A DNA stretch of 64,000 nt from Patescibacteria group bacterium UBA4664 (GCA_943354575.1 CALRCL010000001.1:2934-66933); one strand, 5' to 3'. Shown: positions 27,641 to 40,507, numbered from the stretch's first letter. Notes: generated by a model from the sequence alone, not told the origin. A program made the numbers and translations.

Positions 27641-27726
27641 TGGTGGGCAAGGAGGGACTCGAACCCTCAATCCTTAAAGGAAACGGATTTTAAGTCCGTC
27701 GTGTATACCAATTCCACCACTCGCCC
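27641..27726 (-). tRNA. tRNA-Leu (anticodon TAA)
   Basis: Manual fold: acceptor GGGCGAG/CTTGCCC, D-arm, anticodon stem ACGGA/TCCGT with loop CTTAAAA, long variable arm, T-arm GAGGG-TTCGAGT-CCCTC, encoded CCA. Confidence 0.9.
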
Positions 27727-27746
27727 ATGGTAGTTGTGTATTCTTA

Positions 27747-27820
27747 TGGAGGCGCGTACCGGATTTGAACCGGTGTAGAAGGTTTTGCAGACCTTTGCCT
27801 AACCACTCGGCCAACGCGCC
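27747..27820 (-). tRNA. tRNA-Cys (anticodon GCA)
   Basis: Manual fold: acceptor GGCGCGT/ACGCGCC, anticodon stem AAGGT/ACCTT with loop CTGCAAA, T-arm ACCGG-TTCAAAT-CCGGT, discriminator U, CCA. Confidence 0.9.
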
Positions 27821-28004
27821 CCGTGCCATATATTATACCTTGCTTGCTTAATCTGTAAAAGGGTAGAAATTTAGCGGACTTTTTGGTATGATTAGTCGCG
27901 TACTTTGCTCTTTCAAATATCCTTAAATGGCACGCTTTTTATAATTCAATTCAAAATTACTAGCCAATTGAATATAAATGCCGTAGCATTATTGAAGTAA
28001 CAAT

Positions 28005-28080
28005 GGCGGGATAGCTCAGTTGGTAGAGCAGTGGCTTGAAGAGCCTCGTGTCCTCGGTTCGAATCCGAGTCTCGCCACCA
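28005..28080 (+). tRNA. tRNA-Phe (anticodon GAA)
   Basis: Manual fold: acceptor GGCGGGA/TCTCGCC, D-arm GCTC-AGTTGGTA-GAGC, anticodon loop TTGAAGA, T-arm CTCGG-TTCGAAT-CCGAG, CCA. One U-U mismatch in the anticodon stem. Confidence 0.85.
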
Positions 28081-28110
28081 AAGATTATTCTTTTAATTAA
28101 ATTACACCAT

Positions 28111-28187
28111 GCGGGTGTAGCTCAGTTGTTTAGAGCGCTTCCTTGCCAAGGAAGAGGTCGAGAGTTAGAGTCTCTTCACCCGCACCA
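28111..28187 (+). tRNA. tRNA-Gly (anticodon GCC), integration target of the downstream island
   Basis: Manual fold: acceptor GCGGGTG/CACCCGC, anticodon stem CTTCC/GGAAG with loop TTGCCAA, CCA. D-loop AGTTGTTTA and T-loop TTAGAGT show a U19:A56 covariation. The last 9 nt are shared with the serine recombinase CDS. Confidence 0.9.
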
Positions 28188-29696
28188 ATTTGCATTATTA
28201 GAGCCTGAAAGGGCTCTTTTATTTTCTTCAATGATTGTTTTATAGGGGTCACGCACATCAAAGTACAGCTTTTTGTCCCACATTTTAATGTTAGAAAGTA
28301 ACATTTTAATCAGCTTCTGTTTTTGAACCTCTGTCGAACATTCAAACAGTTCATTTGAGCGTTGTATCAAATCTAACAGATAGGACGCTGTAATTAGAAA
28401 GTCTTTGTTGCCACTCGTTAGTTTTATCTGTTTATCATTCAAAATCTGTTGCTCGTTGCTTAGGTCTGTAACCATTTCGTCATACAGCTCTTTAGTAATA
28501 CGCCCCTCTAAGTGAGTGTGAGTCAAAGTTTTAATCTTTGCTTTCAGCATGTCGTATTGTTTGCGAGTTTGTTCAAGCGTCTCTGTGTAGTAGAGCTGTT
28601 GTGTATCATGACGCTTACGAAGCTCATTAATGACTTGTTCCAACCCCTCAGCAGGTATAGGTAGTCCGCAGACTATCTCGGCTATTGTAGGCATCATATC
28701 TTTGCCTTGCTCTGAGCTATTCACATTGCCACAGTCGCCTTTAGCACCAGTACACTTCATGTATACATTGCCTCGAGCTGTGTAGGATGAGACTGTGCAA
28801 TTGCAAGCCTTACATCTCACAATTTCCTTAAAAGCAAAGTTCTTGCTTCTATAAGCTGTATGCTGGTCGTGTCTGTCTTTGCGTACCATTTGGCACTTAT
28901 TGAAAAGCTCACGAGTAATGAGAGGCTCATACTTGTGGGGGTATGTATGCCCCATATAAGTCATTAGTCCATGGTAGAAAGGATTTTTTAATATCTTTTC
29001 AGCGTGTGATTTGTTGAGTTTTCTACCAGATTTGCTAAGCAGACCATCTTTGTTTACTTGCTCAGCAATTGCTTCATAGGGCATGCCAGTAGAACGAAGC
29101 TCAAACATCGTAACAATGTGTTTGGCACGCTCTGTATCAACATGTATATCCTTTATTGGTTTTTCCTTAGTACCAAGATTTACATTTACATAGCCAATAG
29201 GTGCATAGCCTACCCAAGTTTTGTTAGCTAGCATTTCATCAAAGCGTCGCTTTACATTATCTCTAATGCTATCTGAATAGTACTTGGCCAATGCCATGCC
29301 AATCCCAAGTCTAAATAGGTCTGTTGCTGGCGATGTCTTGTCTATAAACAAATTGTCAGACGGAAAATGTATTTCAATTTTACCTTGTCGTACAAGAGCG
29401 TTTAGCTCTTTGACTTCTTCTTGGCTACTATCCCTCGTAAAGCGGTCAATTTTATCAAAGACTACTATGCATGGCTCTTTTTGTGACTTGATGTCTTCAA
29501 CTAATTTTGAGAACTCTTTTCTTACATCTACGCTGTGAGCACTCTCGTCAAACTCATGATATTCATACTTACAGTGTTTTTCCTTTGCATACTTTTCTAG
29601 CTTTAGTTTTTGGGCTGGTAGTGCCTTTCGTTGGTCTTTGTCTGATACTCTAGCGATTAAATAATATAACATAATTATCTCCTTATAAGTTAACAT
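28176..29696 (-). CDS. large serine recombinase (phage-type serine integrase)
   Basis: N-terminal resolvase catalytic domain YYLIARVSDKDQ (catalytic Ser), recombinase domain, zinc ribbon CKACNCTVSS...CTGAKGDCGN, coiled-coil C-terminus. C-terminal residues NWCG* are encoded by the tRNA-Gly 3' end. Confidence 0.85.
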   Translation of the reverse strand: MLTYKEIIMLYYLIARVSDKDQRKALPAQKLKLEKYAKEKHCKYEYHEFDESAHSVDVRKEFSKLVEDIKSQKEPCIVVFDKIDRFTRDSSQEEVKELNALVRQGKIEIHFPSDNLFIDKTSPATDLFRLGIGMALAKYYSDSIRDNVKRRFDEMLANKTWVGYAPIGYVNVNLGTKEKPIKDIHVDTERAKHIVTMFELRSTGMPYEAIAEQVNKDGLLSKSGRKLNKSHAEKILKNPFYHGLMTYMGHTYPHKYEPLITRELFNKCQMVRKDRHDQHTAYRSKNFAFKEIVRCKACNCTVSSYTARGNVYMKCTGAKGDCGNVNSSEQGKDMMPTIAEIVCGLPIPAEGLEQVINELRKRHDTQQLYYTETLEQTRKQYDMLKAKIKTLTHTHLEGRITKELYDEMVTDLSNEQQILNDKQIKLTSGNKDFLITASYLLDLIQRSNELFECSTEVQKQKLIKMLLSNIKMWDKKLYFDVRDPYKTIIEENKRALSGSNNANWCG

Positions 29697-29708
29697 TAAT
29701 TACTAGTA

Positions 29709-30812
29709 TTAAGCAATGCTTTTCGAGAGCATTTCTATACGGGTTGGTTGAAATTCGTTTAGTGAACTAGTGACTTTTGAAATGTCGCTGTAACGACGAC
29801 CCTTAATTGTTTTCAAGTTTGGTTTTAGCTTTGGCCAGTAGTGTCTACCAAACCGCTTATCAAGTGTGTTTCGCAGAGCAGTTGTGCTTTCTTGATTTGC
29901 GATGAACAGCCCTGCAACTGCGGCAAGCGAGGCTTGTGGAGTTGCGTTCTTGTTTTCGGCTAGGTAGTTCTGAAGCAATTCTAGGGGCATATTTACATCC
30001 ATTGATAGGTAATCTATCTGCGAAGAAAATACTTCCCAATGCTTCAGCAATAGCTGGCGAGATAGTTTAGCTTCGAACAGCCTGCTAAACACCAATTCAT
30101 CTTTAGGGATGTCCTTGAAGTTATGTTGCATTGCTCTCATGCTATTTATGCGGACTTCGTAACGAAGCACACTAAAATCATTAACCACGCCTATGTCGTC
30201 CAGCACAGAAACCTGTAATTGGTTATCTACCTCTCTAGATTTCTTGTCGCTGGTCTTTGCTCTATGCAAATCAGCGAGCTTGTCATAGAAAGCAATGTCT
30301 TTCGAATTGCACTGAAAATGCAAAACTTCACCGTCCTGAAAGTTAGTCTTTTGTATGCTGTACACACGAGTGTAATCAGCCTTTCGCAAGGTGTTGATGA
30401 CTACCTGACAGCCTAAAGGGTTATCAAGCAGAATGTTCTTGCTTGGGTGCCAACATACGACCCTAGCACTAGCTAGATTGTCTTTGGAGACAATAACACC
30501 TAAATGTCTAAGTGAAGCTTCCAACTTATCGATGACTACTCCAAAGTCTTTGTCAGTAAGCTCATCAAAGTTATTGCCAAATAACAGCTTGGGAGCTGAG
30601 AACTCCACACTTAGTGACTCTTTTACACCCGCATTTGTTGGGCGTCTTATTAGAGTTAGGCTAGGCAGGTACAGACCAGCTCTCAGCTCATTCCTCGATG
30701 GATTTCGTACCATTCTTGAAACACCACCTTTTACCGTAAAGTTTCTAAGTTCGCTGTGTTCAAGTAGGGTAAACTCGTCAGCACCTAGATATAGTTTTAC
30801 GGTGTCAACCAT
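29709..30812 (-). CDS. hypothetical protein, possibly replication-initiation/relaxase (Rep_trans-like) of the island
   Basis: 367 aa, immediately upstream of the serine recombinase in the same orientation. Assignment by context and size only, no firm motif. Confidence 0.25.
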   Translation of the reverse strand: MVDTVKLYLGADEFTLLEHSELRNFTVKGGVSRMVRNPSRNELRAGLYLPSLTLIRRPTNAGVKESLSVEFSAPKLLFGNNFDELTDKDFGVVIDKLEASLRHLGVIVSKDNLASARVVCWHPSKNILLDNPLGCQVVINTLRKADYTRVYSIQKTNFQDGEVLHFQCNSKDIAFYDKLADLHRAKTSDKKSREVDNQLQVSVLDDIGVVNDFSVLRYEVRINSMRAMQHNFKDIPKDELVFSRLFEAKLSRQLLLKHWEVFSSQIDYLSMDVNMPLELLQNYLAENKNATPQASLAAVAGLFIANQESTTALRNTLDKRFGRHYWPKLKPNLKTIKGRRYSDISKVTSSLNEFQPTRIEMLSKSIA

Positions 30813-30817
30813 GACAA

Positions 30818-30982
30818 TTACTCTTCTAGCCCGTTTGGAAATTCAAATGGGTTTTCAAGCTGGTTTTTCATGTATCTAAGACTTTCAAAATCTTTACGCC
30901 TTACAAGTTCTGAAAACGCTAGTAACAAAACATCAGTATCAAGATACTTCACGAATTTTTCAGGGATTATTTTGATTTCCAT
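30818..30982 (-). CDS. small hypothetical protein (54 aa from internal Met)
   Basis: MEIKIIPEKFVKYLDTDVLLLAFSELVRRKDFESLRYMKNQLENPFEFPNGLEE. The start abuts the stop of the RHH gene. The longer ORF-track version would overlap the RHH gene. Confidence 0.25.
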   Translation of the reverse strand: MEIKIIPEKFVKYLDTDVLLLAFSELVRRKDFESLRYMKNQLENPFEFPNGLEE

Positions 30983-30983
30983 A

Positions 30984-31166
30984 TTATTTATCTCCTTTAT
31001 TGTTGGGTTTATTGAGTTCAAGTTGCGTGTTAGTAAATGTCTTTCGGTGCAAGTCGGTAATTCTGTACCGTAGGAAGCCTGCCATTGAGCGTTCTTCATT
31101 TCTCGCTAGGTCTCTCAGCTTTTGCCAGACATCAACTGGAAGCTGTACTGTTTTGATTTGTGCCAT
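30984..31166 (-). CDS. ribbon-helix-helix (CopG/Arc/ParD-like) DNA-binding protein
   Basis: MAQIKTVQLPVDVWQKLRDLARNEERSMAGFLRYRI: beta strand plus two helices, the pattern of RHH repressors/antitoxins. Start taken at the internal Met. Confidence 0.5.
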   Translation of the reverse strand: MAQIKTVQLPVDVWQKLRDLARNEERSMAGFLRYRITDLHRKTFTNTQLELNKPNNKGDK

Positions 31167-31362
31167 TCTCTTCTCCTTGTTTAGATTGCTTTGTTTTAAG
31201 GTCAATCTCGATGAAAACATCTAGGTAGTCCGCAATCGCAATCACTATTTCTTGCGATAACTCAGAAGACACGCCTTTGTTTGTGGCTTGCTTTTGTGGT
31301 TCTTCTGGTTGAGATTTGCTATTCGTTTTCATAGTTGCCTTGTTGCAACCAATCACGAACAT
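31132..31362 (-). CDS. small hypothetical protein (76 aa)
   Basis: ORF only. Overlaps the chosen RHH start by 35 nt. No motif. Confidence 0.2.
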   Translation of the reverse strand: MFVIGCNKATMKTNSKSQPEEPQKQATNKGVSSELSQEIVIAIADYLDVFIEIDLKTKQSKQGEENGTNQNSTASS

Positions 31363-31423
31363 TAAAAAAGCCCGTTGTTGATTACGGGCGTATCGTCACA
31401 CAAGGGTTAGTCTGAAAATATTT

Positions 31424-32206
31424 TCAGCAAACTTTACAGATGAGTTTGTTCACAATTACCTTGCGTCCTTGAATTATTATCAGATTGTCAGGACCACCGA
31501 TATCTGTTATCTTTCCATTGATTTCCTGTATTGTGTTCCTGATATTTTTTACATGATTTCTAGTAATAATTGAGTCGTTAACTCCTAAGATTTTACTGAA
31601 ACTAATACCTTGCTTTAGTGTATTGACATTTTTGAACAGCATTTCCAAAAGCTGTGGTTGTTTATATTTGTTACCATTTTTTCGTCTGACACTTCCAGCG
31701 TTTGAATAGTCAATTTTTACAAAGGGTGTTAATGTCAGGATACCACTGTTCTTGTTATAGCTATCAGTATCAAGGTGCTCGATAGCAAATGACTCATGCT
31801 CAATGGTACTAGCAGGCTTTACTTTGGGAATTGTTAGCTTATCAATTTTGTGAAGAGTGGTGCTAAATCTATTAAGTGCTAGGATTGTATATGTTTTTTC
31901 AGCAAGTAAATCTTCAATCATGTCGGCAAAGTCAGTTTTGCCCTGTAAGCCCATCTCTTCTATATCATAAAGCTCCAACAATATTTCTTCTGGTACATCT
32001 TCAATACTTTTGTAGACTGGCTCATCCTTGTACTTGATATACCTATAATCGTTTGCTAGAACTTCAAGCAATTCCTTTTGTTCAGACAAGCTAATACCCC
32101 TTGAGTACAGCTCTTTGGAGTCAATGGTCATTGGCTTACCTTGGCTAAAGCCATTGGCAATATCAATATAACTTAGTAGGTCTAGTATTTTTTCATTGTT
32201 TATCAT
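31424..32206 (-). CDS. hypothetical protein (260 aa), island cargo
   Basis: AT-rich codon usage, no recognisable motif. C-terminal CKVC. Confidence 0.45.
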   Translation of the reverse strand: MINNEKILDLLSYIDIANGFSQGKPMTIDSKELYSRGISLSEQKELLEVLANDYRYIKYKDEPVYKSIEDVPEEILLELYDIEEMGLQGKTDFADMIEDLLAEKTYTILALNRFSTTLHKIDKLTIPKVKPASTIEHESFAIEHLDTDSYNKNSGILTLTPFVKIDYSNAGSVRRKNGNKYKQPQLLEMLFKNVNTLKQGISFSKILGVNDSIITRNHVKNIRNTIQEINGKITDIGGPDNLIIIQGRKVIVNKLICKVC

Positions 32207-32237
32207 GGGCTGTTCTTTACCACAGAGCTAGTAACTC

Positions 32238-32444
32238 GTGTATAGTTATAGTATGACACAATCTGAGGCTAAACGACCAAGACTACTCACGCTCAAACAG
32301 GCGTGCGACATGCTTGGTTGTCATCCAAACACCTTGCGTGCTTGGGACAAAAAAGGCTATTTAGTGGCTGTTCGTATTGGTACAAGGGGTGATAGACGAT
32401 ATTACAAAGACGATGTATTGAAGATAATGGAGAAAAACAAATGA
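32238..32444 (+). CDS. MerR/Xis-like helix-turn-helix protein (excisionase/AlpA-type); candidate RDF or RM controller
   Basis: LLTLKQACDMLGCHPNTLRAWDKKGYLVAVRIGTRGDRRYYKDDV matches the HTH_17/excisionase fold pattern. Stop overlaps the mod start (ATGA). Confidence 0.55.
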   Translation: MYSYSMTQSEAKRPRLLTLKQACDMLGCHPNTLRAWDKKGYLVAVRIGTRGDRRYYKDDVLKIMEKNK

Positions 32445-34621
32445 CACTGAGCGATAACGAAAAACGAGACATAATCAAATTTCTAGAGGCTGGAAAACCC
32501 TTACCAGAGAAATATCGTTTTTTGTTGTTTGATGACGCTCGTGAAGTTGAATTGCTATGGAATGGTAAAAACAATGAGGTAACAAATACAGTATTGCCTT
32601 TTCAGGTTATTGAGCAAATTGATGAACCTCGTAGCGACAACAAGATTGGCCTACAATCTAGTTTGTTTGACGATGGTGGTAGACAGATAACAGGTTGGAC
32701 CAATAAACTAATTTGGGGTGATAACAGGCTAATTCTTTCATCTCTTAAGAATGGACCAATGCGTGATGAAATCGAGTCACAGGGTGGTCTCAAATTAGTT
32801 TACATCGACCCACCGTTTGATGTTGGTGCAGATTTCTCGATGGATATAACTATTGGGGATGGCAAAGACGGAGAAAGTTTTGTAAAGAAGCCGTCAGTTA
32901 TTGAAGAGATCGCATATCGCGACACTTGGGGTAAGGGTGCTGACAGTTTCATATCAATGATTTATGAACGAATAATCCTCATCCATGACTTACTAGCAGA
33001 AGATGGAAGTATATTCGTGCATTGTGATTGGAGACTAAGCTCTCACATGCGGTTAGTTCTAGATGAGATATTCGGAAAGCAAAATTTTGTTAATGAAATA
33101 ATTTGGGCATACTACGGTCCAGGAACTGATAAATCAAAAGAGTTCACAAAGAAGCATGACACGATATATTATTATGCGAAAAATAAAGGCTCACATATAT
33201 TCAATGATGGTGCTATACGAGTTGAACATAGTGCAAAAACTAAAGATAACTACAAAAAGGGTCTAGCAGGCTCTGGTTTCGCTGCTGAGAGTATAAATAG
33301 CCGAGAAAAGGAAGCCTACGCTGATGACACAAATCTCAACAAGTTAGGTAAAATACCTGAAGATTGGTGGGAAATGGCAATCGCCGCTAGGTATCCCGTT
33401 GATGGTGTGAAAAGAACTGGCTACCCTACGGAAAAGCCACTGCCATTGCTTGAACGAATAATAAAGGTTGCATCTAACGAGGGCGACCTAGTTGCAGATT
33501 TCTTCGTAGGTTCTGGAACTACTCTTGCTGTTTCTGAAATGTTAGGTAGGAAATGGATTGGAACGGATTTAGGTAGATTTGGTATCCACACATCACGAAA
33601 GAGAATGATTGATGTGCAACGCAAACTTAAAAAAGACGGTAAAGATTTTCGTGCATTTGAAATATTGAATGTTGGTAGGTACGAAAGAGAGAATTATCTT
33701 AATGTTAATGATGACCTGCGTGCAGAAGAAAAGGCTCAGCAAGCTGTAAGAAAAGAAAAAGAGTTTGTGAAGCTAATTATTACAGCGTACAAAGCAGAGC
33801 CTGTTGAGTCGTTTGTGAATATCGTTGGAAAGAAAAGAGATAGGCTAGTTGCAGTCGGTCCAATTAGTACGCCTGTTTCGTCCAAACAAGTAGATGACAT
33901 AGTTGCTGAGTGTAAAGACAAAGGTATTACAAAAGTTGACATACTTGGGTTTGACTACGAAATGGGATTGGATTTTCATGCATACGCCAGCCAGGGTATA
34001 GATGTTGCATTTAGGGTAATACCGAGAGAAGTGTTTGATAAAAAAGCTGTTGAGCGTGGACATGTTAAGTTCTACGATGTTGCATTTATTGACGCTAAGC
34101 CAACCGTAAAAGGTCCGATGAATAAGAAAGAGATTTCGATTGAATTAACCGACTTCTCTGTCTTCTATAATCAAGACGACTCCGGAGAAGTTGCAGAAGC
34201 ACTACGCCCCGGTGGAGCAAAAGTAATTGTAGAAAACGGACAAGTAGTAAAAGTTTCAAAAGATAAAGATAGCGACATTATCTCAAAAGAAATACTCACC
34301 AAGAAGTGGAGTGACTGGATTGATTACTGGGCTGTAGATTTTGACTTTTCAAGCCGTAAAGAAATGATTAGAGTGCCCAAAACTCATGGAGATAATCTGT
34401 TTGGCAAAGGTAATGTCCAAGATTTACTAGAGTATGAAGAAGTTTGGACTGGTGATTATATCTTCGATAACGAATGGCAGAGCTTTAGGACAAAAAAGAA
34501 TAGGGAGCTTGAACTGACCTCAGCGGCAAAAGAAGTTGGCAAAGGTAAATACAAAGTCGCAATCAAGGTTGTAGACATATTTGGTAACGATACTACTAGG
34601 GTCTTTGAGGTAGAGGTTTAA
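32441..34621 (+). CDS. mod: Type III restriction-modification methyltransferase (Mod), beta-class N6A/N4C MTase
   Basis: Motif IV LVYIDPPFDVG precedes motif I FFVGSGTTLAVSEMLGRKWIGTDL (beta-class order typical of Type III Mod). 726 aa. Immediately followed by the Res gene. Confidence 0.8.
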   Translation: MTLSDNEKRDIIKFLEAGKPLPEKYRFLLFDDAREVELLWNGKNNEVTNTVLPFQVIEQIDEPRSDNKIGLQSSLFDDGGRQITGWTNKLIWGDNRLILSSLKNGPMRDEIESQGGLKLVYIDPPFDVGADFSMDITIGDGKDGESFVKKPSVIEEIAYRDTWGKGADSFISMIYERIILIHDLLAEDGSIFVHCDWRLSSHMRLVLDEIFGKQNFVNEIIWAYYGPGTDKSKEFTKKHDTIYYYAKNKGSHIFNDGAIRVEHSAKTKDNYKKGLAGSGFAAESINSREKEAYADDTNLNKLGKIPEDWWEMAIAARYPVDGVKRTGYPTEKPLPLLERIIKVASNEGDLVADFFVGSGTTLAVSEMLGRKWIGTDLGRFGIHTSRKRMIDVQRKLKKDGKDFRAFEILNVGRYERENYLNVNDDLRAEEKAQQAVRKEKEFVKLIITAYKAEPVESFVNIVGKKRDRLVAVGPISTPVSSKQVDDIVAECKDKGITKVDILGFDYEMGLDFHAYASQGIDVAFRVIPREVFDKKAVERGHVKFYDVAFIDAKPTVKGPMNKKEISIELTDFSVFYNQDDSGEVAEALRPGGAKVIVENGQVVKVSKDKDSDIISKEILTKKWSDWIDYWAVDFDFSSRKEMIRVPKTHGDNLFGKGNVQDLLEYEEVWTGDYIFDNEWQSFRTKKNRELELTSAAKEVGKGKYKVAIKVVDIFGNDTTRVFEVEV

Positions 34622-34622
34622 C

Positions 34623-37313
34623 ATGGCTCTACATAAAGACTTTCCTACCGACCCATATGCCATATTAGACCCAAGTATCCGCTGGTTTCCTGCTGATGAA
34701 GACTTACGAGACAAAGGTCACGAGAAGCTACTCCCACCATTGGTCGCCGACTTGCGTAAAAAAGTTAAGGAATGGCGACTGCTCAATTATGAGGGAGCAA
34801 GTGATACATCTATTGCATTGCTCAATTGGTGGTTCAAAGAAGACCATATTCAATACAATCAAGACGGCTCTTCGTACAATTTTAGATACTACTTTGCACA
34901 GCGTGAAGCACTAGAAACAGTTGTCTGGCTTTATGAGGTCGCCAAGGTAAAAGATAAGTACGACCTCATACGCTATAACTCAACTGGCGTATTGAGTGCG
35001 GGAATGTTTACGGAAGAGTGGCTACGCTTTGTTATTAAAATGGCTACTGGTGCTGGTAAGACAAAAGTAATGAGCTTGGTACTTGCATGGGCTTATTTCC
35101 ATAAAAAATATGAGGAAGACTCACAACTCTCTAAGAACTTCCTTTTAATCGCTCCCAATGTGATTGTGTTTGAGCGTATTAAGAATGACTTTGAGGGATT
35201 AAAGATATTCCATGAAGACCCTGTACTTCCTGACAATGGTTATCGTGGGCAGAATTGGCAAGATGACTTCCAGCTCACTTTACACCTGCAAGACAACCTA
35301 CGGAACATCTCTGACACAGGTAATATCTTTCTCACTAACATACATCGTGTATTTGAGTCGGATGTCAAAAACGCCAGTGCTGATGACGAAGACTCATCTA
35401 CCTATTTCTTGGGTAATAAACCTGTAACTAAAACAAACGACTCAACTGTTGACCTAGGAATGATAGTTAGAGATATAGACGAGTTGATTGTCATCAATGA
35501 CGAAGCTCATCATATATGGGATGAAAAACTTGCTTGGGCAAAATCAATTCAAGATATAGATAACCAATTAAAACAAAAAGGTTCAGGGCTATCACTGCAA
35601 CTTGATGTTACGGCTACGCCTAAGAAGCGAGACGGCTCAATCTTCGTACAGACAATTAGCGACTACCCTCTTGTTGAGGCAATACACCAACAGATTGTTA
35701 AAAACCCTGTCGTACCTGACGCCGCAAGTCGTGGCAAGTTGCATGAAAACCAAAGCTCACTGTTTAGCGAGAAGTACAGAGACTTCATTAATCTAGGTAT
35801 TGAAGAGTGGCGTAAAACTTACGAAGAGCTAAAACCTATGGGCAAGAAATCTATCTTGTTCATAATGACTGACGACACCAAAAACTGTGACGAGGTAGCG
35901 GAATATATCAGAACTAGCTTTGCTGATTTGCGAGACAGCGTACTAACTATTCATACCAACAAAAGTGGCGATATATCAGAAAGTGTTTCAGGTAAGAATA
36001 AAGACGAGCTAGATATACTTCGCAAACAAGCTAACGAAATTGATAGTTGGGAAAGCCCATTCAAAGTAATCATATCTGTAATGATGTTGAAAGAGGGTTG
36101 GGATGTTAAAAATGTAACTACTATTGTTGGGCTAAGGCCGTATGCCGCTGACTCAAAAATCTTGCCCGAACAGACACTTGGTCGTGGTCTGCGTAGAATG
36201 TTTTTTGGTCGTGATGATGTAAAAGAATATGTCAGTGTTGTTGGCACGCCTGCCTTTATGGAGTTTGTTGAGTCAATCAAGGGCGAGGGCGTTATCTTAG
36301 AAAAGAAAGCTATGGGTACAGGATCTAAGCCAATAGCACCTATGGTTGTTGAAGTTGACAATGAAAATCCACAAAAAGATATTGAAAAGCTAGATATTGA
36401 AATACCAATTATGACACCAAGAATACAGAGAGAGTACAAGAACCTTTCTGACTTAGATGTATCAAAGTTTGGTAATAAAAAAGTTTCAATCAAAACATTC
36501 ACAGAGCAGGAAAAGCGAGAGATTGTTTTCAAAGATGTTGTTGGCGAAAATGAACATCACACGACTGTACTTAGTGGAGATATAAATCCTGACTATCAGA
36601 GCGTGATAGGCTTCTTCGCACAAGCTATCATGCGTGAACTTCGTCTGTTTGGTTGCTACGACATTCTATTTGGAAAAGTAAGAGAGTTCGTGCACCAGTA
36701 TATGTTTGAGAACGAGGTTGAGCTGTCCGATTTGAACATGCTCCGAAACTTGTCAGAAGTTGAATACATACACCTGATAAAAGACTCGTTCAAAAAAGCA
36801 ATCAACGAGTTAACAGTTCAAGACAGTGGCGATACCGAGATAAAGAACTACATCAAGATAAGTGAGTCACGCCCATTCGTGGTGAATGACAAGGGCTTTG
36901 TTGTACCTAAAAAGTCAGTCTTCAATAAGATTGTTGGTGATAGTGACTTTGAATTAGTATTCGCTGGGTTTATCGAGGGCTGTGAAGATGTTATTTCGTT
37001 TACCAAGAACTTCCAAAACAAAGAAGCTAGTGCCTTGCGTATTGAATATAAAAACTCTGAGGGCTTTATAGCCAACTACTACCCTGACTTCTTTGTAAAA
37101 ACTGATAGCAAAACTGTTTACATAATTGAAACTAAAGGTCGTGAAGAAGAAGACGACAAACTAAAGTTTGAGCGTCTAAAAAAGTGGTGCGATGATGTTA
37201 ATGACCGTCAAAGTAAAATGGTCTACAAAGCTCTATACATAAAGCAAGAAGAGTGGAATAGAGACAGACTAAAGAGCTTTGATGAGGTTGTCCGAGTATT
37301 TGGAGATAAATAA
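34623..37313 (+). CDS. res: Type III restriction enzyme Res subunit (SF2 helicase + C-terminal PD-(D/E)xK endonuclease)
   Basis: Walker A MATGAGKTKVMS, DEAH box VINDEAHHIW, C-terminal nuclease motif YYPDFFVKTDSKTVYIIETKG. Starts 1 nt after the mod stop. Confidence 0.85.
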   Translation: MALHKDFPTDPYAILDPSIRWFPADEDLRDKGHEKLLPPLVADLRKKVKEWRLLNYEGASDTSIALLNWWFKEDHIQYNQDGSSYNFRYYFAQREALETVVWLYEVAKVKDKYDLIRYNSTGVLSAGMFTEEWLRFVIKMATGAGKTKVMSLVLAWAYFHKKYEEDSQLSKNFLLIAPNVIVFERIKNDFEGLKIFHEDPVLPDNGYRGQNWQDDFQLTLHLQDNLRNISDTGNIFLTNIHRVFESDVKNASADDEDSSTYFLGNKPVTKTNDSTVDLGMIVRDIDELIVINDEAHHIWDEKLAWAKSIQDIDNQLKQKGSGLSLQLDVTATPKKRDGSIFVQTISDYPLVEAIHQQIVKNPVVPDAASRGKLHENQSSLFSEKYRDFINLGIEEWRKTYEELKPMGKKSILFIMTDDTKNCDEVAEYIRTSFADLRDSVLTIHTNKSGDISESVSGKNKDELDILRKQANEIDSWESPFKVIISVMMLKEGWDVKNVTTIVGLRPYAADSKILPEQTLGRGLRRMFFGRDDVKEYVSVVGTPAFMEFVESIKGEGVILEKKAMGTGSKPIAPMVVEVDNENPQKDIEKLDIEIPIMTPRIQREYKNLSDLDVSKFGNKKVSIKTFTEQEKREIVFKDVVGENEHHTTVLSGDINPDYQSVIGFFAQAIMRELRLFGCYDILFGKVREFVHQYMFENEVELSDLNMLRNLSEVEYIHLIKDSFKKAINELTVQDSGDTEIKNYIKISESRPFVVNDKGFVVPKKSVFNKIVGDSDFELVFAGFIEGCEDVISFTKNFQNKEASALRIEYKNSEGFIANYYPDFFVKTDSKTVYIIETKGREEEDDKLKFERLKKWCDDVNDRQSKMVYKALYIKQEEWNRDRLKSFDEVVRVFGDK

Positions 37314-38797
37314 TGAGTCAGTCTGTTTACTTATCTAAAACAGACTTTCTAAAGTACCAAGTATGCCCAAGTTATCTTTGGCTATGGAAGTATAAGCCTG
37401 AAGTCGTGCCTGCTGACGAAGAAGAATATATCAAGCGTCGCAAAGAGCAAGGTAACGAAGTTGAAAAGTATGCACGACAGCTATTTCCTAATGCCAAACT
37501 AGTAGAAACAAAAGGCAGTGAGGCAAGGCGTGATACTGAAAAATTAGTAGCCGACGGCAACACGACTATATTTCAAGCAACCGTTTTTACTGATAGTGGA
37601 TTATTTGCTATGGCTGATGTTATTACCTATGACAGTGAAAAAAAATCATGGACACTATTTGAAGTTAAAGGTACTAACTCTGTAAAAAAAGAACATATCT
37701 ACGACCTTGCGTTTCAGAAGTCTGCGTTTGAAGAAGCTGGGTATGTGATTGGTAAGACGGGCGTTATATTCCTCAACAAAGAGTACAAGCGTAAACCAAG
37801 CATCGTGGCTTCTGAGTTTTTGACACAAGAAGATACTTCCAACAAAGTCGATGAAATCTTGCCAACAATAAAAGACCAAATAAAGGACGCACTTGCTTCT
37901 ATCACTGATACGCCCGAACCAACATCATGCAGTTGCCGTCTAAGGACAAGGTCTAATCATTGCCCTACATTCAAACTTCTTAACCCCGATATTCCTGAGT
38001 ACTCTGTCTTCAACATCACAAATATGCGAGATAAAAAACTTGCTTCCTTGATTGATAACGAGATATTCAATGTGGCGGATGTGCCTGATGACATAAAGCT
38101 AAGCATTCCACAAAAGAACCAAGTAGAGGCTACGAAGACTGGTAATGTCAAAATAGATAATGCAAGCATTGAGCGTATCTTGAACGAGTTAGTATTTCCG
38201 CTATATTTCCTAGACTATGAAACTGTTTCAACAGCAGTACCACTATATGAGGGGTGCAAGCCGTATCAACAAATCCCTTTCCAGTATTCGCTTGATGTAT
38301 TACGAGAGCGTGGCGGTGAGTTAGAACATTATGAATATCTATCAAGAGACGCTAAGAAATTGCCTGCAAAAGAGCTACTGGCTGGTCTTAGAGAGCTAAT
38401 GGACGATGACGGTAGCGTAATAGTTTGGCACAAGACATTTGAAATGGGACGCAATCGTGAAATGGGCGAAACTTACCCCGAATATGCCAATTTCATGGCA
38501 AGCGTGAATGATAGGATTTTTGACCTGAAAGATATATTCAGTAAGCAGCACTTCATACATCCTGATTTTAGAGGCAGTAACTCCATTAAAGATGTGTTGC
38601 CAGTACTAGTACCTGAACTGTCGTACAAAGAGCTTGGTATTCAAAATGGCATGATTGCCCCAATTCGCTGGTATGACGCTGTTACCGGTGCTGTGAGTGC
38701 CGAAGAAGCACAAGTTATCTTCGATGACCTCATAAAGTACTGCGGACTAGACACATTAGCTATGGTCAAAATATATGAGTATCTAGTAAGGCTATGA
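37313..38797 (+). CDS. two-domain nuclease-like protein: N-terminal Cas4/RecB-like PD-(D/E)xK with 4-Cys cluster plus C-terminal DEDD-like 3'-5' exonuclease fold (DUF2779-like?)
   Basis: N-terminal KYQVCPSYLWL (Cas4-like motif), D102...E117-V-K119, Cys18/Cys206/Cys208/Cys217 arranged like a Cas4 Fe-S cluster. C-terminal FLDYET (Exo I-like), VWHKTFE (Exo II-like), YCGLDTLAMVKIY (Exo III YxxxD). The start ATG overlaps the res stop (TAATG-type coupling). Confidence 0.45.
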   Translation: MSQSVYLSKTDFLKYQVCPSYLWLWKYKPEVVPADEEEYIKRRKEQGNEVEKYARQLFPNAKLVETKGSEARRDTEKLVADGNTTIFQATVFTDSGLFAMADVITYDSEKKSWTLFEVKGTNSVKKEHIYDLAFQKSAFEEAGYVIGKTGVIFLNKEYKRKPSIVASEFLTQEDTSNKVDEILPTIKDQIKDALASITDTPEPTSCSCRLRTRSNHCPTFKLLNPDIPEYSVFNITNMRDKKLASLIDNEIFNVADVPDDIKLSIPQKNQVEATKTGNVKIDNASIERILNELVFPLYFLDYETVSTAVPLYEGCKPYQQIPFQYSLDVLRERGGELEHYEYLSRDAKKLPAKELLAGLRELMDDDGSVIVWHKTFEMGRNREMGETYPEYANFMASVNDRIFDLKDIFSKQHFIHPDFRGSNSIKDVLPVLVPELSYKELGIQNGMIAPIRWYDAVTGAVSAEEAQVIFDDLIKYCGLDTLAMVKIYEYLVRL

Positions 38798-38985
38798 ATA
38801 TAACCGACAAAGATATTACTGAGTTCCAGACTTTATACAAAGCACGATTTGGCAAAGATATTGATAGGACCGAGGCGAGAGATAAATTATCAAAGCTGGT
38901 CCGACAAATGGAAATCGTGTATCAACCGATAACTAAAAAACAAGTTAAAGATTTGAAAGAGAAAGACGCAAAAAAACAGTCCTAA
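38794..38985 (+). CDS. small hypothetical protein (63 aa) translationally coupled to the upstream nuclease gene
   Basis: ATGA overlap with the preceding gene. Lys/Asp-rich, no motif. Followed by a terminator hairpin. Confidence 0.4.
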   Translation: MNITDKDITEFQTLYKARFGKDIDRTEARDKLSKLVRQMEIVYQPITKKQVKDLKEKDAKKQS

Positions 38986-39066
38986 AACGATTAAGCTTAT
39001 CGCTTATGCTACAATATGGGTAATGCGTTTATCGCAGGGGGACGACTCGTAAGAGCGTCGCAGAAG

Positions 39067-39091
39067 GACCCGCAAGGGTCTCTTTTGTTTT
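39067..39091 (+). terminator. intrinsic terminator of the RM operon
   Basis: GACCC-GCAA-GGGTC followed by TCTTTTGTTTT. Confidence 0.5.
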
Positions 39092-39863
39092 ATAGGAACT
39101 TTTTACCGTTGCCCTTTGGTCCAGTTGCACCAGTGTAATATTTCGGTTGAATAGCCTCTATAACTGTCTTTGTAAAGTTATTATCTAGAGTTTCTATTCT
39201 CTCATTTGAGTGCAGAATATCAATCTTTGAATTAAGTGCGATTAAGTCTGCGAACTCAAGTCCATGAATGAGATGATATTTTGTTTTCATCTTAATTTCT
39301 TTTGAGGTTAATCGTGCCTGTACATCCGTTGCGTTAGCGAAGTTCGTACCATTTGCATAAAAGTCCGAATACACTTCCTCTATTTTTCTATCTTCCTTTT
39401 TTCCACGAGCCTCTGCCATGACATCGCCTTTTGCATTGGCATACTTAAGAAACTTGCAATATCTTTCCAGCATACAAGTCAGGCTGTAATGATAGGGATG
39501 TTCGGGCGTTACATATTTATCTTGATGACCGTTCTTATCAATAACAACAGTAATTATTTGATAGTCTACATCTTTAAGTAGCGACAATAACTGCCCATCA
39601 AATTGTTTTCTTATATCTGCTTCTTGTAGCTTTGCAAACCCATTCTTAGAAGCCATTATATCTGTAAGATGAAGAGGTGGCCTAAGGTCATGGTCAGTGT
39701 AAAAATGTGAACGGAGTTGCTCAACTCTCTTTATCACTTCATTATCGTAAACATCTTTATTTATGATAATGCCAGTCAAGCCAAGATATCGTTCGGTTAT
39801 GGCTTCATTCCTTTGGTAGCGGTGATGTCCCGACTCATCAATATATAATCTGTAAACTGACAT
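39090..39863 (-). CDS. DUF3800 family protein
   Basis: N-terminus YRLYIDESGHH (the YIDESG signature I recall for DUF3800). Start taken at the internal Met 4 nt downstream of the stop of the upstream HTH gene. Confidence 0.55.
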   Translation of the reverse strand: MSVYRLYIDESGHHRYQRNEAITERYLGLTGIIINKDVYDNEVIKRVEQLRSHFYTDHDLRPPLHLTDIMASKNGFAKLQEADIRKQFDGQLLSLLKDVDYQIITVVIDKNGHQDKYVTPEHPYHYSLTCMLERYCKFLKYANAKGDVMAEARGKKEDRKIEEVYSDFYANGTNFANATDVQARLTSKEIKMKTKYHLIHGLEFADLIALNSKIDILHSNERIETLDNNFTKTVIEAIQPKYYTGATGPKGNGKKFL

Positions 39864-39867
39864 ACAT

Positions 39868-40251
39868 CTATAATAACTGAAGTGCGTGTAGTTCTTTGTC
39901 AGAATAGTTCTCAAACTGGTCATCTGCACTAACGGTTGTCAGTGTCTTTACGCTAAACTCGTCCTTACGCTTACGCTCTAAGTACCACATACTAGTCTTC
40001 ACATCGCCTCTACGAATAGCATTGCAGACAGTGTGCCTTGCTTGAATAATCATGAATAGCTTTGCACGCTCCATTTTGTCCATAAAATGAACATCATCTT
40101 CAAGTCTCTTATAATATGCAGAGCGAGAAACACCAGATATAGAACACGCTTCTTCTACCGTACAACCAATAGCAAATGCCTGTTCTAATTTACGGACAGT
40201 GTCATGGTCAAAGACTGTAGGTCTTCCTCTTGTTTTTGTAGCAACTTTCAT
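39868..40251 (-). CDS. HTH DNA-binding protein (terminase-small-subunit/resolvase-HTH-like)
   Basis: TRGRPTVFDHDTVRKLEQAFAIGCTVEEACSISGVSRSAYYKRL: classic HTH with a GRP lead-in. Forms an operon with the DUF3800 gene. Confidence 0.45.
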   Translation of the reverse strand: MKVATKTRGRPTVFDHDTVRKLEQAFAIGCTVEEACSISGVSRSAYYKRLEDDVHFMDKMERAKLFMIIQARHTVCNAIRRGDVKTSMWYLERKRKDEFSVKTLTTVSADDQFENYSDKELHALQLL

Positions 40252-40430
40252 ATTCCTATTATAGCCCTTTTGTATCTGTTGATGTATAATAATTAGTAAT
40301 AGAGTTCAAGCTGTAACCAAGTCAGGTGATAGACTAAACTCTTGTACCAATTCACGCAACGCATAATCGTCAACTAACTCAATAGATTTAGTTAGAAGTA
40401 TGTCAACTGCGTAGCACCAAAAAAATATAA

Positions 40431-40507
<77 letters not shown>

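Follow-up and report, generated by a model that had tools for sequence, protein, structure and literature searches.

The 64,000-nucleotide stretch of DNA from Patescibacteria group bacterium UBA4664 analysed here (GCA_943354575.1, CALRCL010000001.1:2934-66933; the window) carries five co-directional genes between positions 32238 and 39091, as established from the open reading frame (ORF) map and the junction sequences. In order, they encode a small helix-turn-helix (HTH) protein, the methyltransferase subunit (Mod) and the restriction subunit (Res) belonging to a Type III restriction–modification (RM) system, a 494-residue protein of the DUF2779 family, in which two nuclease folds are predicted, and a 63-residue protein. 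The DUF2779 protein and its recurrent position behind DNA-cutting defence enzymes are the main subject of this report.

All features of the operon lie on the plus strand. The HTH gene (32253–32444) encodes a HTH_17/MerR/excisionase-like small protein (Pfam HTH_17, 3.7e-11; MerR_1, 3.4e-9; PADLOC mad1, 1.3e-12), which is kept 5′ of Mod in related loci (L001, L003–L005, L105, L106; loci are given by L numbers throughout) and is probably the controller of the operon. An earlier note on this DNA had described an Xis/MerR-like HTH gene coupled to mod. The domain and the coupling stand, the HTH stop codon overlapping the Mod ATG in an ATGA (32441–32444), but the start codon is more likely the ATG at 32253 than the alternative GTG at 32238, because a homologue is called as 63 residues long and a promoter-like site covers the GTG. 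This site (TTACCA-18-TATAGT, 32217–32246), located 5′ of the HTH ATG by a consensus scan, is itself weak evidence because the number of promoter-like sites in the region is not above the shuffled expectation. The mod gene (32441–34621, 726 residues) is followed after a one-base gap by the ATG of res (34623–37313, 896 residues). The Res stop codon TAA and the ATG of the DUF2779 ORF (37313–38797) have one base in common (TAATG, 37311–37315), and the DUF2779 stop codon overlaps the ATG of the 63-residue ORF (38794–38985), again in an ATGA (38794–38797), so that both junctions are as the earlier note had read them and the last gene is coupled translationally to DUF2779. The operon ends with an intrinsic-terminator-like hairpin and T-run (39066–39091; GGACCCGCAAGGGTCT followed by CTTTTGTTTT), assigned by consensus match only. 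The segment from 32.2 to 39.1 kb of the window is a single operon that consists of the HTH gene, a self-sufficient Mod–Res pair and 3′ cargo, namely DUF2779 and the 63-residue protein.

Mod is a β-class Type III methyltransferase (Pfam N6_N4_Mtase, 2.2e-45; PADLOC MTase_III, 7.6e-118), and its closest solved relative in a PDB sequence search is EcoP15I Mod (4zcf_A, 1.3e-16). In its translation, DPPF (motif IV) comes ahead of FVGSG (motif I, FxGSG). Res consists of a superfamily 2 (SF2) helicase-like ATPase and a C-terminal PD-(D/E)XK nuclease (ResIII, 1.2e-17; PADLOC REase_III, 1.2e-19), with GAGKT, DEAH and a C-terminal PD...ETK in the translation and weak TnsA-like/RE_endonuc matches at residues 763–857. 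It also matches the NCBIfam BPTD_3080 family at 3.7e-82, under the cut-off of that model, and has no useful sequence-level match among the solved structures of the PDB. No Methylase_S match, and hence no specificity subunit, was found in the island that carries the operon. The motifs and the Pfam and PADLOC matches agree with the textbook Type III pair that had been proposed, and every defining feature of a Type III system that can be judged from sequence is present. Type III enzymes cleave DNA in an ATP-dependent manner, 25–27 bp away from one member of a pair of unmethylated asymmetric sites in inverse orientation, and Mod hemimethylates these sites. As in EcoP15I and EcoP1I, a β-class Mod is followed by a Res with an SF2 ATPase and a C-terminal PD-(D/E)XK nuclease, with no S subunit. 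Unlike these systems, the window operon has a HTH gene in front and two genes behind, and its family often carries cargo between mod and res.

The part of mod at 33090–33420 cannot be aligned to the close relatives L001, L003, L005 and L085: blastn alignments stop at about 33012–33106 and restart at about 33416–33473, and the mod sequence on either side, as well as res, is 75–90% identical to the four loci. This central segment is presumably the target-recognition domain, swapped among relatives. Res is 93–99% identical among the relatives at the amino acid level and DUF2779 67–92%, with synonymous sites near saturation in both. The difference arises because the constraint on Res is much stronger, with a ratio of non-synonymous to synonymous substitution rates (dN/dS) of 0.012 as compared to 0.06 for DUF2779 and 0.05–0.10 for the 63-residue gene. 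Recombination was considered as the cause of the higher conservation of Res and rejected, since the operon has a similar DNA identity along its length and both genes are saturated at synonymous sites. The constraint on Res is also much tighter than that on Mod. All operon genes for which dN/dS was computed are under purifying selection.

The 494-residue protein matches Pfam PF11074/DUF2779 with 136.3 bits (cut-off 23.3; E 9.1e-40) over profile positions 1–126 of 126. It consists of an N-terminal DUF83/Cas4-like PD-(D/E)XK nuclease domain (37313–37987) fused to a C-terminal RNase H-like, DEDDy 3′-5′ exonuclease-like domain (38198–38797), which is the architecture of family F.17 of Majorek et al. 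2014, who placed DUF2779 among 3′-5′ exonucleases and pointed out that it co-occurs with DUF83 (PMC3985635). The C-terminal domain, which contains the PF11074 match, displays the Exo I motif (DxE), the acidic residue of Exo II and the Exo III motif (Yx3D) on an RNase H-like fold, as expected of a DEDDy enzyme. Ten residues of the two domains (D102, E117, K119, Q135, D301, E303, E377, D404, Y476 and D480) are invariant in 86/86 homologues with 36–100% identity. The predicted model confirms a Cas4-like nuclease fold joined to a DEDDy 3′-5′ exonuclease fold. The motifs had been read correctly in the earlier note because the catalytic residues are invariant in the 86 homologues and the cysteines described below in 24. 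The possibility that the gene is a frameshifted C-terminal extension of Res was rejected: all relatives encode it as a gene of its own, and a HEPN gene (L001) or a HARE-HTH gene (L085) lies between it and res. Both folds expected from the motifs are predicted, and homologues of the protein do co-occur with RM and defence genes, so that none of the outcomes listed in the earlier note as refuting its reading was observed.

The Cas4-like domain carries four cysteines (C18, C206, C208 and C217), which are invariant in 24 close homologues (58–75% identity) and retained in 58–78 of the 86 broader homologues, and it probably holds an iron–sulphur (Fe-S) cluster. The likeness to Cas4 that had been noted extends to the fold and the motifs, but not to the spacing of the cysteines, which is CxC-x8-C instead of the canonical Cx2Cx5C of Cas4. 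The predicted model has low per-residue confidence (predicted local distance difference test, pLDDT) around residues 200–225. The Pfam Cas_Cas4 profile scores 18.9 bits, under its cut-off of 22.7, and PADLOC Cas4 models match at just 1.5e-6 and 3.6e-5. There are no cas domains in the ORFs of the island and no CRISPR-like tandem array in the 64-kb window. By these measures the protein is Cas4-like in its predicted fold and not a member of the Cas4 family by sequence threshold or context. It also differs from CRISPR Cas4 and Cas2-DEDDh in that both folds reside in one chain and neither cas1 nor cas2 accompanies it.

The DUF2779 family is large, counting 7,367 representatives at 50% identity (E<=1e-3), 2,081 of them at E<=1e-30. 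The window protein scores under the cut-offs of two NCBIfam models, UU173 (89 vs 225 bits) and TIGR03491 (28 vs 97 bits, 9e-7). The latter represents the TM0106/COG2251 family, in which a RecB-like nuclease is combined with PF13482 RNase_H_2 in a parallel PD-(D/E)XK plus PolB-like exonuclease layout, as noted by Majorek et al. 2014, although it is a separate Pfam family. A sequence search of the DUF2779 profile against solved structures returned nothing useful. A DUF2779 model is absent from PADLOC-DB 2.0 and PHROGs, and the only PADLOC matches of the protein are the weak ones to Cas4 models. In a 2026 mSphere paper, the JCVI-syn3.0 homologue MMSYN1_0389 (NCBIfam UU173) was dissected and described as combining Cas4-like and DEDD(y) parts (PMC13621843), and it has the same layout and identical conserved catalytic residues. 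The Mycoplasma proteins differ from that of the window in being about 650 residues long, in keeping two of the four cysteines and in being chromosomal and quasi-essential, with no RM linkage reported.

Both elements of the configuration that the earlier note did not know to be described have antecedents in the literature: the dual-nuclease layout is that of published DUF2779 proteins, and a Cas4-family gene next to a Type III system has a precedent in the UvrD-Cas4 fusions. Hudaiberdiev et al. 2017 described these fusions in Type III Mod/Res neighbourhoods and interpreted them as ancillary to several defence systems, and they reported solo-Cas4 genes adjoining RM in small-genome archaea (PMC5704561). 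UvrD-Cas4 with Type III Mod/Res is the closest described analogue of the window arrangement. In both, a Cas4-family gene is an optional ancillary component of a Type III neighbourhood that often has HTH or Schlafen-like genes nearby, and Schlafen/AlbA2 cargo is common to the UvrD-Cas4 neighbourhoods and the RM family of the window. The fusions, however, carry an SF1 helicase and belong to pfam12705, whereas the window protein belongs to PF11074 and carries a DEDDy exonuclease and no motor. In the searchable literature, we found no paper that connects DUF2779 with RM or defence.

The genomic context of the family was analysed in 80 species-representative genome loci with DUF2779 homologues, whose neighbouring genes were clustered. 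Genes in these loci came from a crude longest-ORF caller and RM labels from seven seed hidden Markov models (HMMs), so the RM counts are lower bounds. RM and defence families dominate among the co-directional genes upstream of DUF2779, including Eco57I/MmeI-type IIG enzymes, ResIII, N6_N4 methylases, GmrSD, Shedu, Mrr, HNH and ABC-type ATPases, and at distances beyond 6 kb housekeeping genes prevail. The linkage is strongly polar. Within 6 kb of DUF2779, 44 seed-labelled RM genes lie upstream and 5 downstream; counted per locus, 28 loci have RM genes on the upstream side only and 1 on the downstream side only (binomial p=1e-7). Among upstream genes, RM families make up 31/126 as compared to 4/150 distant genes (Fisher p=2.5e-8). 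In at least 26 of the 80 loci, the co-directional run upstream of DUF2779 includes an RM or defence gene, and the gap to the upstream gene is mostly <=16 nt. DUF2779 recurs at the 3′ end of operons encoding Type I, Type IIG (MmeI-like), Type III and Type IV RM systems, Qat and ATPase–nuclease systems.

The closest relatives of the window operon (L003/L004, L085, L090, L001 and L005) retain the order HTH–Mod–Res–DUF2779, with DUF2779 67–92% identical and synonymous sites saturated, and with the HEPN or HARE-HTH gene mentioned above between res and DUF2779 in L001 and L085, respectively. The Mod–Res–(X)–DUF2779 linkage is conserved through deep divergence in L001, L003, L005, L085 and L090. In the Saccharimonadia-type clade, 18/19 leaves have an RM or defence link, with switching of the partner type. 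Type III systems with DUF2779 occur with two unrelated Res clusters (L005 and L009; L062, L064, L066 and L079). A single contig (CAYHUN010000002.1 of GCA_964360195.1) carries two paralogues, 59% identical to each other, of which one (L085) follows a Type III Mod–Res–HARE-HTH array and the other (L092) follows DUF4357–HsdM–HsdS–HsdR–AAA_21, a Type I system. The plasmid copies (30 records) are preceded by QatABCD, or by ATPase, helicase and PLD genes. There were no DUF2779 matches among 50,697 phage records.

The position directly 5′ of DUF2779 has regularities of its own. A HARE-HTH protein of about 250 residues with a weak PD-(D/E)XK match occupies it in L095, L006 and L085, behind MmeI-like and Type III enzymes, and in other loci HEPN, SMODS and DUF6119 genes take the place between DUF2779 and the RM enzyme. 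Outside MmeI-type contexts, a large P-loop ATPase (AAA, ABC/SMC-like, AAA_13 or AAA_21) is very often found directly 5′ of DUF2779, for example in the plasmid loci L103, L104, L186 and L187 and the genome loci L027, L056 and L092. These cases hint at a recurrent ATPase plus DUF2779 pair.

The reverse comparison starts from the RM system. Among 80 metagenome loci that encode close Res relatives (L105–L184, 66–94% identity), 53 extend at least 1.6 kb downstream of res, and DUF2779 is found there in 0/53, including two loci in which Res is 94% identical to that of the window. Instead, this family accepts a variety of other genes: there are genes inserted between mod and res in 43/70 loci and a co-directional gene within 100 bp after res in 39/70. 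The cargo includes NYN+KTSC, Schlafen/AlbA2, an OLD-family ATPase-TOPRIM, Fic, UvrD and an S49 peptidase. The very conserved Type III Mod–Res backbone is a docking platform for variable defence cargo. Because of the empty count and the varied alternative cargo, DUF2779 is one optional cargo among many and not a defining Type III subunit.

This comparison largely refutes the idea of a new, extended Type III system defined by DUF2779 as an integral additional subunit, which is how the locus had been presented at the outset. Its translational coupling to res, the arrangement kept in the five related loci (L001, L003, L005, L085 and L090) and the presence of DUF2779 behind a second Res family (L062, L064, L066 and L079) would all suit such a subunit, but, besides its absence behind the close relatives of the window Res, other genes can separate res from DUF2779, and members of the same DUF2779 clade are found behind Type I, IIG and IV systems as well as behind systems that are not RM. 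We regard an integral subunit as barely credible. The alternative offered in the earlier note, an accessory or standalone defence gene recruited into the operon, is better supported.

We favour, with confidence that is evenly balanced, a reading in which DUF2779 is a portable DNA-end-processing accessory, encoded last in the operons of DNA-cutting or DNA-translocating defence enzymes, that degrades restricted DNA. The reading builds on the gene structure, the translational coupling, the two folds, the invariance of the catalytic residues, purifying selection and a linkage to RM and defence operons that is both polar and recurrent. From these we infer a substrate, a polarity for each nuclease head, cooperation with Res and an effect on defence. 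The upstream enzyme, here Res, would cut unmodified DNA in a single double-strand break. Both nuclease heads would then attack the exposed ends, the Cas4-like head in the 5′-3′ direction and the DEDDy head in the 3′-5′ direction. Degradation of the restricted DNA would prevent its repair or recombination, as RecBCD and AddAB do elsewhere. In other bacteria, RecBCD or AddAB degrade DNA after restriction, and the AddB and RecB nuclease domains belong to the PD-(D/E)XK/Cas4 superfamily, AddB having an Fe-S ‘staple’. DUF2779 resembles these complexes in its proposed role, the destruction of linear DNA made by restriction, and differs in being a single 494-residue polypeptide that possesses neither a helicase motor nor Chi recognition; it has no sensor domain either.

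A broader form of this proposal, which we put forward tentatively, holds that DUF2779 is a motor-less, two-polarity ‘finisher’ that acts behind Type I, IIG, III and IV RM, Qat and ATPase–nuclease systems alike and destroys or recycles the cut DNA, as a stand-in for RecBCD/AddAB in the reduced genomes of Patescibacteria and Mollicutes.

Several observations weigh against an end-processing accessory of defence enzymes. The association of RM and DUF2779 is optional in both directions, as the 53 close Mod–Res loci without DUF2779 illustrate, and many DUF2779 genes (in Pyrinomonadaceae, Saprospiraceae and Pirellulales) are found in housekeeping contexts. HEPN, HARE-HTH and SMODS genes often separate DUF2779 from the RM enzyme, and because of these variable genes direct coupling to Res is not required. 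Plain clustering of genes in defence islands could explain the co-location of RM and DUF2779. The family is experimentally uncharacterised, and the Mycoplasma homologue is quasi-essential and has no RM link (PMC13621843), so that a general repair role fits as well as defence.

If clustering is the explanation, DUF2779, possibly with the 63-residue protein, could be an autonomous single-gene defence nuclease that recognises foreign DNA ends or replication intermediates and destroys them, with its adjacency to RM reflecting island clustering and shared transcription. The many-to-many relation of DUF2779 to upstream systems is consistent with such a nuclease, as are its absence from 53/53 close Mod–Res relatives, the unrelated defence cargo hosted by the same backbone (NYN+KTSC, Schlafen/AlbA2, OLD, Fic and UvrD) and its absence from phages. 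Nevertheless, DUF2779 keeps a strongly polar position as a co-directional and nearly always final gene, joined by overlaps or very short gaps; it has no sensor or regulatory domain, and an unregulated dual exonuclease would need ends or specificity to be supplied. PADLOC 2.0 also has no DUF2779 model. On balance, autonomy appears doubtful to us.

The Mycoplasma homologue points in another direction, to a host-protective repair enzyme that resects double-strand breaks, including those from accidental self-restriction by the linked RM system, for RecA-mediated repair and serves as a minimal substitute for AddAB/RecBCD that travels with the very hazard it would mitigate. This would agree with the quasi-essentiality of the gene in JCVI-syn3.0 (PMC13621843), with the selection of a M. 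bovis transposon mutant in the homologue in a cell-culture fitness screen (PMC7373297) and with the housekeeping contexts in several phyla, and the chemistry fits end resection, as in Cas4/AddB-like and DEDD nucleases. In the clade of the window, however, DUF2779 is unlike a core repair gene because it is carried on mobile islands and plasmids, is seen in up to two RM-linked copies per genome and has been gained and lost among near-identical RM operons. It also displays no helicase or RecA-loading feature. We consider a repair enzyme of this kind unlikely at the window locus, where an accessory to the upstream nuclease remains the reading that we prefer.

The 63-residue protein at the end of the operon has homologues in 35 clusters, 46–88 residues long and all from Patescibacteria-type sources, with a near-invariant motif LVRQMEIVYQPIT. 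Its AlphaFold2 model (pLDDT 91) consists of three helices. A Foldseek search with this model gave no significant structural match and no PDB match, and the protein has no PADLOC match. In L085 and L090 the gene follows DUF2779 with an identical ATGA overlap, and in L001 a homologue is fused to a HEPN_AbiU2 domain. Other homologues occur where there is no DUF2779: directly after res (L130), divergent and 5′ of mod (L105, L130 and L143), before a ThsB_TIR–caspase module (L100) and in an integrase element (L101). Two explanations of this gene were rejected. A remnant of the 277-residue HEPN_AbiU2 gene of L001 does not agree with the 35 stand-alone clusters of 46–88 residues and the purifying selection on the gene, and a dedicated partner of DUF2779 does not agree with its occurrence in several settings without DUF2779. 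These islands carry it as a real and conserved small gene that is not specific to DUF2779.

The operon sits on a mobile island with a serine recombinase, in a genome that the names of the closest homologues assign to Saccharibacteria/Patescibacteria. The island is about 12 kb long (28176–40421), has a GC content of 38–41% as compared to about 45% in the flanks and lies between tRNA-Gly (28111–28187) and tRNA-Val (40431–40507); it contains the serine recombinase gene, the operon, a DUF3800 gene and a TerS-like gene. The large serine recombinase gene (28176–29696, minus strand; Resolvase and Recombinase matches) occupies the left end, where its 3′ end shares 12 nt with the 3′ end of tRNA-Gly. 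An adjoining 367-residue ORF (29709–30812, minus strand) has no match in Pfam, NCBIfam, PADLOC or PHROGs and is probably a backbone gene of the island family because it is kept beside the recombinase in L001, L003, L005 and L019. At the right end are the DUF3800 gene (39090–39929, minus strand) and a 127-residue TerS-like gene (39868–40251, minus strand; PHROG ‘terminase small subunit’, 6.8e-19), reported as convergent with the DUF3800 gene. The combination of an integrase, a TerS-like gene and defence cargo resembles phage-satellite islands of the phage-inducible chromosomal island (PICI) type, which would be unusual in Patescibacteria. A tRNA cluster (Leu, Cys, Phe and Gly, 27641–28187) lies directly to the left of the island, and the flanks contain the housekeeping genes for LigA, GatA, LemA and FolD. 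The island is mobile, since a near-identical island (about 90% DNA identity) has different right-hand flanks in other Patescibacteria contigs. No att-type direct repeats were found at the island ends, where the only similarity is that of generic tRNA sequence. Apart from DUF2779, the locus is an ordinary RM island.

Such a setting raises the question of whether DUF2779 works for the mobile element itself, for example in handling DNA ends while the element is excised, replicated or transferred, with the RM genes as neighbouring cargo. A serine or tyrosine recombinase does occur nearby in 14/26 RM-linked loci, as well as in the window, L095 and L096, and DUF2779 is present on 30 plasmids. Yet 12/26 RM-linked loci have no recombinase within the flank, the recombinase type varies, and by orientation and spacing DUF2779 is part of the defence operon and not of the recombinase module; it is also found in non-mobile housekeeping contexts. 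A role in the element seems very improbable.

The polar link, at the level of the family, between an uncharacterised dual nuclease and DNA-cutting defence operons of diverse kinds provides a useful and testable lead. For the large DUF2779 family, none of whose members has been characterised, the polar genomic link to such operons offers a concrete functional hypothesis. If DUF2779 is indeed a finisher of cut DNA, this would give a function to a quasi-essential gene of JCVI-syn3.0 and define a new class of generic defence accessory. The Mod–Res docking platform is useful for the discovery of new defence genes. In Patescibacteria, CRISPR is rare and reliance on RM is heavy. Optional nuclease accessories may shape the efficacy of restriction in these organisms and, possibly, the salvage of restricted DNA.

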